DNA from: Chlamydiales bacterium
GTDB lineage: Bacteria; Chlamydiota; Chlamydiia; Chlamydiales; JAJFMA01
Direction: 5' to 3'
Assembly: GCA_030679955.1 (NCBI GenBank)
Contig: JAUXSF010000026.1
Location: forward strand, 112,981-176,980
Length of the DNA: 64,000 nt
Shown here: piece after piece, positions 32,401 through 42,149 of the stretch
How positions within the stretch are numbered: position 1 is the stretch's first letter
Layout: each line of letters begins with the position of its first letter
Notes under the pieces: generated by a model
Databases searched by the model: none
What the model saw: the letters and a program-made list of their open reading frames with translations, nothing else
What the model was told of the DNA's origin: nothing
Program-made: the position numbers and the translations under genes

Positions 32401-32540
32401 TCCTCTCTCTCCTTTTGTCTAAAGCTCCCTATTCTAGCAATCTATTTACATTTAAAGCCAAGAGGATTTGCACCGCTCAAGCACTATTAATTTTAATTTT
32501 CATGGACTGCAAATCTTTGCTGTGTTGTGTTACTAAAAAA

Positions 32541-32631
32541 ACAAAGCCTTTCGTTAATTATTTACTTGCTTTATATATACATTTTTTATAATATCTACGA
32601 TATATTTTAATCTTATAGTAAGGAGTTCGTA
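32541..32631 (+). promoter_or_regulatory. AT-rich leader with TATAAT (32587-32592) upstream of the 950-aa orphan
   Basis: TTTTTTATAATATCTACG, then a TAAGGAG RBS before ATG 32632. Confidence 0.4.
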
Positions 32632-35484
32632 ATGCAACTTAACTTGGATTTGGGTCAAATAATACGTTCATTCAGCAATCAATCCAACACGCTAAGTGTC
32701 ATCCCAAACTCCTCCATAACCCCTCTCGCAGCAATGCATATCCAGCAGGCTATTCGAGTAGAGAAAGAAAACGTCGATACTCAAAAAATCCTTCAGAATG
32801 TCGACTTAGATCAGTTGTTGCCAACTTTAAGCCAATGTCCGGCAGCATACCGCTTTATGTCGTTAAATTGTTTGTTTAAAAATCTTATAACGATGACTTT
32901 GAATAAGCACTTGAGAGGAGATAAGGCCAAGTTAGAATCGATTTTGATAGATTTGGGGTTTTTTATTACTAATCTCTATAAAGGGGAAGTTCAAGAAAAA
33001 CAGTTAGCCTTTGATTCTCATAGTTTGAGAGGAATAGATATCTTAGCAGAGGAAAGTGAAGATGAAGAAATGAAGCGCTTTCTACAATCTCTACGCGAGT
33101 CTCTCCCACAAGTTATCAGCTCAAATTTCCCCACTTCTGTAAGGAGCGATTTTTATTGGGTTCCGGAAGACAGAAACTTTTTTAATGTTACAGTTTCAAC
33201 ACTTTTGGGGAATGGATCAGAGTTTCAAAATATAGAAGAAAAGGAACGTACGCGAGTCTACTTGGGTACGTTTTTCCCCATAGCGGCTCGTACAGCGTTC
33301 GAGACTGCACTATTCACTAGAGAGAAGATCTGCGAAAAGTTGAATGCAATTGTATTTCAAAAATTAGATAAATTTATTGATACCTCCGATTACTTTCCAG
33401 ATAAAAAGAAGAATGGCGCGTGGTTGATGAAAAAGCGCTTACTTAGTTTTGCTACCAAATTAAAAGGCATAAATGAAGAGCAAGCCAAATTTTATGAATC
33501 CTGCGTAAAACCAAGTTTAGAAATTCTAGCACCATCCTATATGGCGGATTTGCTAAAGGAGGGTCAAATGAAAACCCTCAAAGATGAATTGGAAATTTTC
33601 TCATCTGAATGTGAAAAACTTTGTCAGTCCATGGTTGGTCATAACGATTTGGTGAGTGAAGCCTTGTTGATGTTCTATAATGACGTTGAACGTTATGAAC
33701 TTTTCCTGATTTGGACTAATAAAACGTATGAAGGTAAGACGAGCTTTGTAAGATTTTTAAATGAGAATCGCACGGCGGTTTTAAAAGAAAAAAATCACGA
33801 TGAGCATTGGAACAGGTTTAATGCTTGGCTGTACCGATATTCTCAATCTAATGGAATGGACGCCACATGGAAGAAAATTATCACAGGCCATGGGTCGCTA
33901 GGGCTAGACATGTCACCCGAAGTTTTGGCGCTGGCAGATGAAATATCTTTAGATTTGGAAAAAGTACGAGACCTCACGACAGCATTAAGATTACAAATTC
34001 GATCTCATGTCAATCTCGTGGAAAATTACCGAAATTTGGAAGAGACGAAGGTATTGATCTCTCTTGACGATACCGATAGTAGTATCGAGTCTATAGTGCA
34101 AGATCTCGCTTTTGAAAAACTGGGGGAGCAAAATCCTGTAGGATTTTCACCATCGATAAACATCGTGATAGATGAGCAAACCACAGAAGCGTCTTTAGAA
34201 TCCGTTGATTCGCATAGTTATGGCGAATTAAATGAGATGTTTATGACAGCATTTCAAAAGTTCTCCTTGAGCCATCCTTTGGCAAAACAGGCATTCAAAG
34301 ATGCAAAACAAGCATACAAGAATCTTATTGCAGAGCTTAGATTCCCATTGGAGGCGTCTGACTCAAATTCTCATGCCCATGCGTTAGTTCGCTTTACCTG
34401 TATTATGATGGAAGAAATAGCTACAACACTCATCTTAGAGAAAAATCAACCAGACCAAGATGACCTTAGATTTATAAGGCATAGTATTTTAAGAGACCTA
34501 AATCATAGTAATTTAAATCCAAAATTTATTGAGGTAGCATCGAGGGGATATCAGGTGGAGCAACGTATGAGATATCCGCATACGGACGAGACCTCTGACG
34601 AGAACCAGATGTTGACCACCTTGCGTCAACTCGTGCGAACAACTGCTCCTGCTGAAAGTACCGCACTTTTAAAGGGAATTTACACCTATGTGGAAGAGAA
34701 TCTGAAGGCTGTAGGATCTATACTGGGTTTGGATGAAAATACTATCAAAATTAGAGCCAATCAGGAATCTAATGCAATAGACATCAACTTACCGAGTCAG
34801 ATACTAGCGCACAGTCTAGCAGCAAGCTTAGATGAAATGCGCCTAGATATCGGTCAATTTCTATCCGCATATCCACCGTCAGATACCCCAACCAACAACT
34901 CCGTAGCTAACCATATCGCAGACGCCGCGCATTTACTGGATTTGGTTAAAAGCCGACTACTTAGAAGCTCTGAAATGAGTGCAGAGTATGCGGAGCTTTC
35001 AACTCTCTTACCTTTAGCGATTGAGTCGCTCATTATAGCTATCGCGGGTCGGCAAGGTGGGACACTAGATCTTTCTAAACTAGATCGAAAATCAATGGGC
35101 CATAACTTATTGGAGTTGTATAGCAGTAACAAAATCGCTCAACTACTCTCCAAGAACTGCGGAATTGGAGCTCAGTCGCACGTGAGATTCATGAGGGAAA
35201 CAAGATCGCTTCTTTCCCTAACTCGCTACACTAACGTCCAACAAGCAACGAAGGGTAAAAAACTGGACCAAACGTTATTGAAGCAGGTAAAATTAAGTTC
35301 TACCTTAAGCTATAGCACAAATGCTCCTGTTTCGCAGGATGGTTGGATCTCCGTGCAGGGCACCCGAGCGAAAAGAACGAAGCATGCGCAGCGTGGTCTA
35401 AAAGGTGAGCTGTTAAATCGCACTCAAGGGGGAATTTTAATGGCCCGTGACCTGTTAAAGTTATTTAATACGCTTCACGCTTAA
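32632..35484 (+). CDS. Orphan 950-aa largely helical protein, effector candidate
   Basis: Long uninterrupted ORF with a good RBS, no signal peptide and no motif I recognise. Confidence 0.7.
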   Translation: MQLNLDLGQIIRSFSNQSNTLSVIPNSSITPLAAMHIQQAIRVEKENVDTQKILQNVDLDQLLPTLSQCPAAYRFMSLNCLFKNLITMTLNKHLRGDKAKLESILIDLGFFITNLYKGEVQEKQLAFDSHSLRGIDILAEESEDEEMKRFLQSLRESLPQVISSNFPTSVRSDFYWVPEDRNFFNVTVSTLLGNGSEFQNIEEKERTRVYLGTFFPIAARTAFETALFTREKICEKLNAIVFQKLDKFIDTSDYFPDKKKNGAWLMKKRLLSFATKLKGINEEQAKFYESCVKPSLEILAPSYMADLLKEGQMKTLKDELEIFSSECEKLCQSMVGHNDLVSEALLMFYNDVERYELFLIWTNKTYEGKTSFVRFLNENRTAVLKEKNHDEHWNRFNAWLYRYSQSNGMDATWKKIITGHGSLGLDMSPEVLALADEISLDLEKVRDLTTALRLQIRSHVNLVENYRNLEETKVLISLDDTDSSIESIVQDLAFEKLGEQNPVGFSPSINIVIDEQTTEASLESVDSHSYGELNEMFMTAFQKFSLSHPLAKQAFKDAKQAYKNLIAELRFPLEASDSNSHAHALVRFTCIMMEEIATTLILEKNQPDQDDLRFIRHSILRDLNHSNLNPKFIEVASRGYQVEQRMRYPHTDETSDENQMLTTLRQLVRTTAPAESTALLKGIYTYVEENLKAVGSILGLDENTIKIRANQESNAIDINLPSQILAHSLAASLDEMRLDIGQFLSAYPPSDTPTNNSVANHIADAAHLLDLVKSRLLRSSEMSAEYAELSTLLPLAIESLIIAIAGRQGGTLDLSKLDRKSMGHNLLELYSSNKIAQLLSKNCGIGAQSHVRFMRETRSLLSLTRYTNVQQATKGKKLDQTLLKQVKLSSTLSYSTNAPVSQDGWISVQGTRAKRTKHAQRGLKGELLNRTQGGILMARDLLKLFNTLHA

Positions 35485-41138: not shown

Positions 41139-41186
41139 GGCTGGCAGAGAACTGCAACTAACGTCTGATAATTGATGTTATGTCTA

Positions 41187-42149
41187 TTATCGCCGGGTGT
41201 GAGACCAATTTCGAATGGTCTGGATTGTGAATAACAGCGGCCTGGGAAGCATCTTATCTATTCTACCTCGTAACGACAGCAACATCCCTTCTGGTGTGTA
41301 GAACAAAACACCAACTAGTGCACACACTGCGAGCGCACTAACAACGCCGACTTCTTGATCCTGGGTTTGAGGAAGCCTTGCACTTACCCATGTCCAAATT
41401 TTCGCCGGTCCGCTTAATGGTTCAGCATTATCGTTTTCGGCAACGAGGTCATCATTAATTTGCTCGTCGAGTTTGCTTTGATCTTCAAAAATCCACAAAG
41501 CCAGACAAGCGCTACTTATTAAAATCGAAGCTATACTTAATGGTACGGCTGGATGTTTGCGACAATATCTATAGAGGTTCTGAGAAGCTTTTGAGGTTCT
41601 CTGGGCTAGTCGCATTTTGGACAAAGATATTAAAGAGACGTCCTTTATGAATTTCAGTATTCTACTGGAGTTGGATGGTAATTTAATGGGCTTCACCCAT
41701 TTATGGAAAAGGTCTATTCCCCATTGTGGCTTAATACACATAGCTGTGGTTGCAACGATTGCGCAGCCACCAAGTCCTAAAGCTACAGTTGAGTTTAACC
41801 AAAGGTTTTGGAAAGTATAGGCATCGGAAATACCTTGGCTAAGGTCAACAGCCGCTTGAAAACGCAACGATTGTAATGCCCATTTTACAGAAGCAGGTGC
41901 GAGAGCAATAATCACACTGAGACCTAAAAGTACCCCCTCAAGTGACGCTGTTACCGCAAAGGCACCAGCTCCTACGAAACGTACAGGTTGAAAAGCTTCA
42001 CCCCAACTTAAGGCGGGTGTGGAAATCTTTTGGTTAACCCAATCAATTACATTTTCTGCACATATTTGGTCTGGAACTAAGGTGTAGAGATCTTTGTCTG
42101 CAGGTTTTACTTCAAACCCTATCTTGTCAGCCCAATTTAAAATTCGCAT
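41187..42149 (-). CDS. Multi-hydrophobic-segment membrane protein (Inc-like candidate)
   Basis: Several long hydrophobic blocks, e.g. FVGAGAFAVTASLEGVLLGLSVIIALAPA, VALGLGGCAIVATTAMCI, LSIASILISSACLALWIF and VVSALAVCALVGVLFY. Confidence 0.6.
   Translation of the reverse strand: MRILNWADKIGFEVKPADKDLYTLVPDQICAENVIDWVNQKISTPALSWGEAFQPVRFVGAGAFAVTASLEGVLLGLSVIIALAPASVKWALQSLRFQAAVDLSQGISDAYTFQNLWLNSTVALGLGGCAIVATTAMCIKPQWGIDLFHKWVKPIKLPSNSSRILKFIKDVSLISLSKMRLAQRTSKASQNLYRYCRKHPAVPLSIASILISSACLALWIFEDQSKLDEQINDDLVAENDNAEPLSGPAKIWTWVSARLPQTQDQEVGVVSALAVCALVGVLFYTPEGMLLSLRGRIDKMLPRPLLFTIQTIRNWSHTRR

Follow-up and report, generated by a model that had tools for sequence, protein, structure and literature searches.

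How a run of genes without any recognisable function comes to be held together beside conserved neighbours, and why most of them should begin behind DNA that is almost entirely A and T, is the question raised by a locus of about 10 kb in the metagenome-assembled genome of a Chlamydiales bacterium (GenBank assembly GCA_030679955.1, contig JAUXSF010000026.1). The window that we analysed is the 64,000-nucleotide stretch from 112,981 to 176,980 of this contig (GC content 45.8%), and all coordinates below refer to it unless another contig is named. Between an AsmA-like gene and an ABC-F gene lie six open reading frames (ORFs), which encode proteins of 950, 740, 152, 291, 561 and 320 amino acids (aa). 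So far, this is a typical cluster of lineage-specific hypothetical genes. We give about an even chance to the reading that it is a variable slot for host-interaction genes, driven by sigma66-type promoters set in AT-rich tracts, and that it is neither mobile nor a recent import. Its best-supported functional unit is a module of a candidate oxygenase, a small protein and a putative GT-B enzyme.

Gene content of the region

The ORF sizes and coordinates in the initial annotation, which was made from the letters alone, proved exact; it counted seven genes where the ORF scan finds six. NCBI likewise lists six (Q8K75_07640 to Q8K75_07665), all under the product name "hypothetical protein". That none has a recognisable housekeeping identity is borne out, as the six proteins gave zero matches against Pfam, NCBIfam, PADLOC and PHROGs. 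Searches of PDB sequences with five of the six proteins, those of 950, 740, 152, 291 and 561 aa, and with three family profiles returned nothing relevant. Since PADLOC and PHROGs gave zero matches, a defence island and a prophage were both ruled out. Plausible Shine-Dalgarno sites precede all six genes, and the large products lack a signal peptide, there being no hydrophobic segment in the first 40 residues. A gap of 19 nt separates the 291-aa gene from the 152-aa gene; the two form a bicistron, which converges on the 740-aa gene with a 4-nt overlap between the 152- and 740-aa genes. No close relative of the 950-aa protein was found in a metagenome scan and none in plasmids by tblastn, and both searches were also empty for the 561-aa protein. 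Scans of genome contigs found no relatives of the AsmA-like protein and, for the ABC-F protein, only unrelated Firmicutes and cyanobacteria. The mechanical ABC-F ORF opens with TTG at 42503 (550 aa), and the database protein is 542 aa long; translation probably begins at the ATG some 24 nt further on (42503-42527), and the divergent spacer would then measure about 377 bp. The features are collected in Table 1.

Table 1. Genes, protein regions and AT-rich blocks of the locus, followed by the AT-rich blocks elsewhere in the window
Feature	Coordinates	Strand	Basis or remark
AsmA-like gene	28195-32400	-	PF05170 match
AT block before 950-aa gene	32534-32622	+	minimum 60-bp GC 0.13; TATAAT 32587-32592
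950-aa orphan protein, Q8K75_07640	32632-35484	+	soluble, no signal peptide, GC 40.5%
AT block before 740-aa gene	35619-35718	+	minimum GC 0.12; TATAAT at 35674, 35698
740-aa protein gene	35721-37943	+	ORF scan
N-terminal extension of about 260 residues	35721-36503	+	predicted disordered and coiled-coil, poorly conserved
Conserved domain, residues 262-722	36504-37886	+	two alpha/beta Rossmann-like halves, GT-B-like
152-aa small partner gene	37940-38398	-	second gene of the 291-152 bicistron
291-aa protein gene	38418-39293	-	candidate 2OG-Fe(II) oxygenase
Divergent AT block, 291-152 operon (-) and 561-aa gene (+)	39292-39437		spacer GC 19.5%, minimum 0.08
561-aa orphan protein, Q8K75_07660	39453-41138	+	hydrophilic; GC and codon usage backbone-like
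320-aa basic membrane protein	41187-42149	-	4-5 hydrophobic segments
ABC-F gene	42503-44155	+	right border of region
AT block before 572/488-aa gene pair (no family match)	3840-3977	+	60-bp GC scan
AT block before 422-aa gene (no family match)	16341-16401	+	60-bp GC scan
AT block with TGTTATAAT before 639-aa gene	62898-62975	-	60-bp GC scan

A module of a GT-B-like protein, a candidate oxygenase and a small partner

The 740-aa protein belongs to a very small family. Only two relatives (54% and 37% identity) were found among 5.8 billion protein clusters, and an exhaustive search of 1.84 billion representatives with a hidden Markov model yielded seven members in all. The 291-aa protein is equally rare, with two relatives (56% and 48% identity) among the same 5.8 billion clusters, so that the lineage restriction proposed for these genes is evident. 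Two motifs mark the conserved domain of the 740-aa protein, DGxGDxG (residues 280-286, nt 36558-36578) and GDGS (residues 601-604, followed by F or L at 605; nt 37521-37535). The residues invariant among six aligned family members are G-x-G-D towards the N-terminus and, in the second half, G-D-G-S. Three of the seven members are distant stand-alone proteins of 427-480 aa, which have no Pfam domain and lack the N-terminus of about 260 residues. An AlphaFold2 model from a 3-sequence alignment (pLDDT 55) shows beta-alpha alternation in two halves. Its best Foldseek hits in the PDB are almost all GT-B proteins (UDP-GlcNAc 2-epimerase, WaaC, OGT, BshA and OtsA; E~1e-3), at low TM-scores of 0.15-0.37. 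One family member shows a weak match to PF04413, the N-domain of a GT-B Kdo-transferase (E=0.031). These results suggest that the 740-aa protein is probably a GT-B-like glycosyltransferase (GT).

The 291-aa protein carries the residues expected of a 2-oxoglutarate (2OG)-Fe(II) oxygenase. In all three family members H151-x-D153 (nt 38835-38843), H228 (nt 38610-38612) and R273 are invariant, the last being a candidate 2OG-binding residue. One member (P0006) matches PF13640 at E=0.0056 and 18 bits, against a cut-off of 27; the alignment covers profile positions 12-86 of 98, with the HxD at one end and the distal His at the other. Another member matches TauD around the distal His, and for the window protein PF13640 gave no match. 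Its AlphaFold2 model, also from a 3-sequence alignment, has a pLDDT of 48; the prediction for the C-terminal half is rich in beta structure. The 291-aa protein is therefore a probable 2OG-Fe(II) oxygenase by its invariant HxD...H triad. The prolyl 4-hydroxylase (P4H)-like identity named in the initial annotation is only a lead, the PF13640 match being below threshold. The 152-aa protein matched no family and no PDB entry.

It is also evident that these genes travel together. In the window the 740-aa gene (+) is followed by the 152-aa (-) and 291-aa (-) genes. In a second contig (L002, SRR16951077) the order is 286, 145 and 744 aa, all on the + strand, and in a third (L004, GCA_021774385.1) the GT gene (+) is followed by a 285-aa gene (+). 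In a fourth contig (L003, SRR21359840), the gene for a 660-aa GT is divergent from one whose 135-aa product is homologous to the 152-aa protein. Three genomes thus have the GT gene next to the oxygenase gene, in three arrangements and different contexts, and the small protein stands beside the GT in three of the four loci. In L002 the module lies between porin-like genes and an efflux operon, and the 950-, 561- and 320-aa genes are absent there. That the two genes have stayed neighbours in three genomes despite rearrangement argues that the GT and the oxygenase are functionally coupled.

The resemblance to EarP, the arginine rhamnosyltransferase of EF-P (GT104), that had been noted for the 740-aa protein comes down to two short motifs. 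EarP sequences in the PDB read WDIFCSVVDNYGDIGVTWRLARQL and VRGEDSFVRAQWAG at these positions, and the window protein reads LLCPLMIDGMGDLGIAMNAL and AAGDGSFSDALSL. Like EarP, the 740-aa protein has an N-terminal D-x-x-G-D-[IL]-G and then, in the second domain, G-[DE]-x-S-F in the same order and at comparable spacing, on what appears to be a GT-B-type scaffold. Unlike EarP, it has A-G-D-G-S-F instead of R-G-E-D-S-F, with E-D replaced by D-G; the EarP motif D-N-Y-G-D-I-G corresponds to I-D-G-M-G-D-L-G, whose first Asp is not invariant in the family (Gly in P0078). The N-terminus of about 260 residues and the oxygenase linkage are further differences. PF10093 (EarP) gave no match at E<=10 for three family members. 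Searches of PDB sequences by phmmer and hmmsearch, with the protein and with 3- and 6-sequence profiles, never recovered EarP, although the library contains its entries, and the best 50 Foldseek hits do not include it. The motifs stand, and membership of the 740-aa protein in EarP/GT104 is not supported by these comparisons.

The same motifs, at equivalent positions in both proteins, lend weight to a different reading of the module, namely that it modifies an endogenous bacterial protein such as a translation factor, as EarP does EF-P, and is not a secreted effector system. The distant stand-alone GT relatives fit this reading, as they occur in low-GC bacteria (L018 2042-3788, JGI 3300033182; L019 7032-10258, GCA_003265895.1) in housekeeping contexts without an oxygenase neighbour. 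The start of one of them follows smpB after 2 nt, with queC and a gene for an MnmC-type tRNA-modification methyltransferase as further neighbours; another lies between an unannotated gene of 320 aa and parA-parB. Because these relatives have neither the N-terminal extension nor the oxygenase linkage, both features are specific to the chlamydial subfamily. Moreover, the module is known from four contigs in varying contexts, unlike a core modification pathway. No EF-P family match was found among the 48 window ORFs scanned, in L002-L004 the GT has the oxygenase and the small protein beside it, and EarP is absent from the profile and fold results. On balance we regard a bacterial target as unlikely, though far from negligible. 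A host target is favoured because of the N-terminal extension of the chlamydial subfamily and the sporadic distribution of the module.

A variable slot without the hallmarks of a mobile island

The nearest relatives of the ABC-F protein are only 54-55% identical, which indicates that the host genome belongs to a deep lineage. Two contigs nevertheless share the right flank of the region. In L011 (ENA ERZ25039454 contig_1137), the ABC-F, SIMPL, two GIY-YIG, CDF transporter, UPRTase and S41 protease genes are conserved; in L014 (Logan DRR623196), the ABC-F, SIMPL and first GIY-YIG genes are conserved, and this short contig ends there. The slot itself differs. Divergent from the ABC-F gene, L011 carries a gene whose 538-aa product is homologous to the 320-aa protein (29.6% identity, E = 5e-25), and within 10 kb it has no homologue of the AsmA-like, 950-, 740- or 561-aa proteins. 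At the same position, L014 carries a gene (27-1151, -) for a 374-aa protein with an OTU domain of the deubiquitinase type (E = 8e-10), which by its domain is an effector-type gene in the place of the 320-aa gene and the cluster. L011 and L014 keep the right flank and differ in what fills the slot, which makes the region a variable slot at a breakpoint of synteny. The earlier view of an island fails for the 320-aa gene, which belongs to the backbone because its L011 homologue also neighbours the ABC-F gene. Two other ABC-F homologues (P0010 and P0015) were rejected as synteny references, since their contexts are non-syntenic and they are probably from outside the chlamydiae.

The 320-aa protein is fast-evolving. 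It has a hydrophobic stretch of about 40 residues (approximately residues 56-95, split by E-G) and three further hydrophobic segments. Inc proteins are marked by a bilobed hydrophobic domain of about 40-60 residues, and these features are as compatible with an Inc-like protein as with any multi-pass membrane protein.

Two observations on the flank may be added. The GIY-YIG genes are tandem paralogues of about 500-550 aa with a weak domain (window 44943-48368, -; L011 12605-15765; L014 3929-5230), and their leaders in the relatives have 15-23% GC. L011, the closest syntenic relative, is a single contig of 3.9 Mb; if it does come from one of the Chlamydiae, its size would be exceptional for that group.

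A breakpoint of this kind relative to L011, and the near absence of homologues, might also be produced by horizontal acquisition, in which case the AT-rich DNA would be foreign and silenced by AT-binding nucleoid proteins (xenogeneic silencing). The 950-, 152- and 291-aa genes do have a lower GC content (38-42%) than the backbone (about 47%), and this difference is due to amino-acid composition. Synonymous codon usage of the island genes gives z from -0.6 (the 950-aa gene) to +3.5, within the range of Pfam-positive genes or a better fit; the sole deviant is the 320-aa gene (z = -2.9). A tRNA search of the window found none, and a repeat search for borders returned only chance-level matches, none bracketing the region. 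No integrase, transposase or other mobility domain was detected by Pfam in the six genes or at the borders. Furthermore, extreme AT-richness is limited to promoter-proximal blocks of about 100 bp and does not extend across the genes, and blocks of this kind recur at three unlinked positions of the window as well as at orthologous genes of other genomes. The island proposed initially is therefore not borne out as foreign or mobile DNA, and we see little likelihood in this explanation.

AT-rich blocks precede genes without a Pfam match

We scanned the whole 64-kb window for AT blocks, defined as 60-bp windows with GC <=0.17. Six blocks were found (Table 1), which are exactly the AT-rich places listed in the initial annotation, and each lies directly 5' of a gene without a Pfam match. 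Genes whose upstream spacer measures 60 bp or more were then classed by a Pfam match and by a block within 150 nt of the start. A block lies 5' of 7 of the 10 genes without a Pfam match and of none of the 14 Pfam-positive genes of this window (P = 3.5e-4, Fisher's exact test; P = 1.5e-4, Mann-Whitney test).

The blocks are shorter and less general than had been described. Near-pure A/T stretches of 80-230 bp were claimed; this is true of the proximal 90-146 bp and not of the full spacers, of which 32401-32631 and 35485-35720 have 30% and 38% GC. Before the 950-aa gene, for example, the Shine-Dalgarno sequence AAGGAG precedes the ATG at 32632, and the part of the spacer that also serves the divergent AsmA-like gene (32401-32533) is of ordinary composition. 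Nor does each gene have its own extreme leader, as the 320-aa gene has a moderately AT-rich one (minimum 0.23).

Similar leaders are found in the relatives. The L002 leaders of orthologous genes, on a contig of 51% GC, reach 60-bp minima of 12-15% GC, those in L003 and L004 appear similarly AT-rich, and the leader of the L014 OTU-domain gene has 12% GC. In the relatives, a beta-lactamase-family gene and a GIY-YIG gene likewise begin behind extreme leaders. The proposal that such leaders stand only before orphan or effector-like genes thus applies to the window and breaks down in the relatives, and the class is better called "accessory or lineage-specific" than strictly "orphan".

Elsewhere in the window, the 572- and 488-aa genes (3987-7174, +) and the 422-aa gene (16415-17683, +) are singletons at 90% identity and are named "hypothetical" by NCBI. 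The 639-aa gene belongs to an array of four tandem paralogues (56715-63983, -) of 722, 673, 639 and 295 aa, with mutual identity of 28-36% and no Pfam match. Its 639-, 673- and 722-aa members, of which the 639-aa gene comes first, have an isoelectric point (pI) of 9.6-9.9 and two long hydrophobic regions apiece, and from its sequences the array looks like an expanded membrane protein family, possibly Inc-like. An IS200/IS605-type Y1 transposase gene (PF01797, E=1e-25; 56040-56510, +) adjoins the array and is the only mobility gene in the window. An RNA-repair pair lies at 20839-23170 (+), with a LigT/2'-5' RNA ligase-like gene (weak archease match) followed by RtcB (PF01139, E=1e-154).

Promoter-like elements in the AT-rich blocks

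TATAAT boxes are present where the initial annotation placed them, at 32587, at 35674 and 35698, and within 39294-39452, the last region having boxes at 39324 and 39423. The distance from the -10-like boxes to the start codons is 23-70 nt. Judging by these positions, most of each block would be promoter and upstream DNA (about -60 to +30) and not 5' untranslated region, so that "leader" is partly a misnomer. On the sense strand, the blocks contain 8 TATAAT boxes as compared with 4.1 in dinucleotide shuffles, about a twofold excess (P = 0.03), and the ABC-F gene has a sigma70-type promoter match even better than those of the AT-block genes. It follows that the AT context, and not the -10 box, defines the class.

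No further sequence element is held in common. A k-mer search of 11 leaders (six from the window and five orthologous or related) found no shared 7- to 9-mer above the shuffle maxima, which leaves nothing of the anticipated common motif beyond composition and -10-like boxes. Alignment of orthologous leaders shows no positional conservation beyond composition. The tracts consist of mixed TA/AT steps with few long A-tracts. Known riboswitch or small-RNA leaders were ruled out, as an Rfam scan of the window gave no matches.

The lack of a motif, the unalignable orthologous leaders and a TATAAT frequency only about twice chance could be explained if the AT-rich spacers were a neutral by-product of AT-biased mutation beside genes that evolve fast and are simply unannotated. 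Against this, convergent spacers in the window, which are free of promoters, have 33-53% GC and third codon positions about 42% GC, far from the 8-17% GC of the blocks, which argues that the AT-richness is not neutral drift. Orthologous leaders also stay extreme although the proteins share only 37-57% identity and the host contigs have 49-51% GC, and the blocks are always 5' of genes. We therefore give very little credence to a neutral origin.

Composition being the sole property that the leaders share, mechanisms that read composition are favoured, and candidates are UP-element-like contacts, easy melting or supercoiling sensitivity, and AT-preferring nucleoid or developmental regulators. A conserved regulator of C. 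trachomatis, Euo, is reported to bind close to promoters, in a region that is rich in A and T and contains poly-A/T tracts (PMC10653925). By analogy Euo offers a precedent for regulation through the AT blocks, and not a test of it.

Sigma28 and sigma54 regulons exist in Chlamydia, and the blocks might accordingly be promoters of such a late-gene regulon, as the earlier suggestion of sigma-specific promoters implied, but a regular-expression scan of eight leaders for sigma28 (TAAAG-N-GCCGATA) and sigma54 (GG-N10-GC) found no credible site at a sensible position and all leaders have sigma70-type TATAAT-like boxes, which leaves this explanation next to no chance.

Proposed mechanism

The gene structures, the rarity of the proteins, the conservation of the module, the AT blocks with their association to unannotated genes and the lack of island hallmarks are direct observations; we infer the enzymatic activities, secretion, host target and regulatory mechanism as follows. 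The region would comprise four or five independent transcription units, namely the 950-aa gene, the 561-aa gene, the 320-aa gene and the three-gene module. All except the 320-aa gene would be transcribed from a housekeeping-sigma (sigma66/sigma70-type) promoter, in which a near-consensus -10 box lies inside a tract of 90-150 bp with 83-92% A+T, covering about -60 to +30. The tract may act by its composition and not as a specific operator, in that it would be UP-element-like, easily melted and responsive to supercoiling, and Euo, histone-like proteins or other nucleoid or developmental regulators with a preference for AT may bind to it. As an outcome, the lineage-specific genes would share a common, probably stage-dependent expression. 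For the module, we suppose that the GT gained its disordered and coiled-coil N-terminus of about 260 residues, and that the oxygenase and the transferase modify one common protein substrate by hydroxylation and then glycosylation. The substrate would most likely be a host protein, reached after secretion.

Several points weigh against the reading of the region as a slot for host-interaction genes with AT-tract promoters. For the module, no member of the GT or oxygenase family is above a Pfam gathering threshold, the model of the 740-aa protein has a low pLDDT and low TM-scores, Foldseek gave no meaningful match for the poor model of the 291-aa protein, and the contexts of the stand-alone GT relatives are compatible with a bacterial target. 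For the promoters, TATAAT is only modestly enriched, no k-mer is shared, and extreme leaders in the relatives also precede genes with a family match. In scope, the association statistics rest on a single 64-kb window and a few related loci, and the deepest homology search covered, of the six proteins, those of 740 and 291 aa.

A more specific proposal joins the module and the regulon, and we consider it quite unlikely in this full form. The region might encode an undescribed two-enzyme system for host-protein modification, found in a few deep-branching chlamydiae. The P4H-like oxygenase would hydroxylate an amoebal or protist protein, and the EarP-like GT-B enzyme, delivered via its disordered N-terminus, would then glycosylate the same residue with the assistance of the 152-aa partner. 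Eukaryotic switches by hydroxylation and glycosylation, such as the Skp1 pathway, would be mimicked or subverted. The genes would stand in an "AT-tract" regulon, defined by composition, that co-ordinates lineage-specific host-interaction genes.

If AT-tract promoters do mark host-interaction genes, composition alone could nominate effector candidates in uncultured chlamydiae, where prediction by homology fails. The module is a concrete, testable lead to a new way of modifying proteins in intracellular bacteria, and it enlarges a glycosyltransferase family of which hardly any members are known, seven among 1.84 billion representatives.

Comparison with known systems

The 291-aa family resembles P4H-type 2OG-Fe(II) oxygenases (PF13640) in the HxD...H iron triad and in a sub-threshold alignment over the catalytic core. 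It differs in its score (18 versus 27 bits), and Foldseek with its poor model gave no meaningful match that would show a double-stranded beta-helix fold. Linkage of hydroxylation and glycosylation is known elsewhere. In collagen, a lysyl hydroxylase and a glycosyltransferase bring about the glycosylation of hydroxylysine. In Dictyostelium and Toxoplasma, PhyA and Gnt1 act on Skp1, of which a residue is hydroxylated and then glycosylated (PMC3515798, PMC11192375). As in these two pathways, an oxygenase is linked with a glycosyltransferase-like protein in the window, here as neighbouring genes, whereas the sequence of the window GT is not related to those of Gnt1 or the collagen glycosyltransferases. 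For a type III class I chaperone (about 130-160 aa, acidic, encoded beside its effector), the 152-aa protein would have a fitting size and a fitting place next to the 740-aa gene, kept in L002 and L003, and its pI of 6.4 is not strongly acidic.

The putative promoters resemble UP-element and extended -10 sigma70 promoters, with TATAAT-like boxes, some preceded by TGn, and about 60 bp of AT-rich DNA upstream. They also recall the AT-rich, poly-A/T-containing DNA beside promoters to which Euo is reported to bind (PMC10653925). As differences, no defined operator or shared motif was found in the leaders, and their tracts are mixed TA/AT steps and not phased A-tracts.

At the level of the whole region, the closest comparison is with plasticity zones and lineage-specific effector/Inc clusters, which occur in Chlamydiaceae and environmental chlamydiae. 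Unlike those clusters, the region has no member homologous to a characterised chlamydial effector or Inc protein. Like them, it is a variable region between conserved blocks, rich in hypothetical proteins without signal peptides, with a multi-pass hydrophobic protein and enzymes of putative eukaryote-type chemistry, and in a relative the same slot is taken by an OTU-domain gene.

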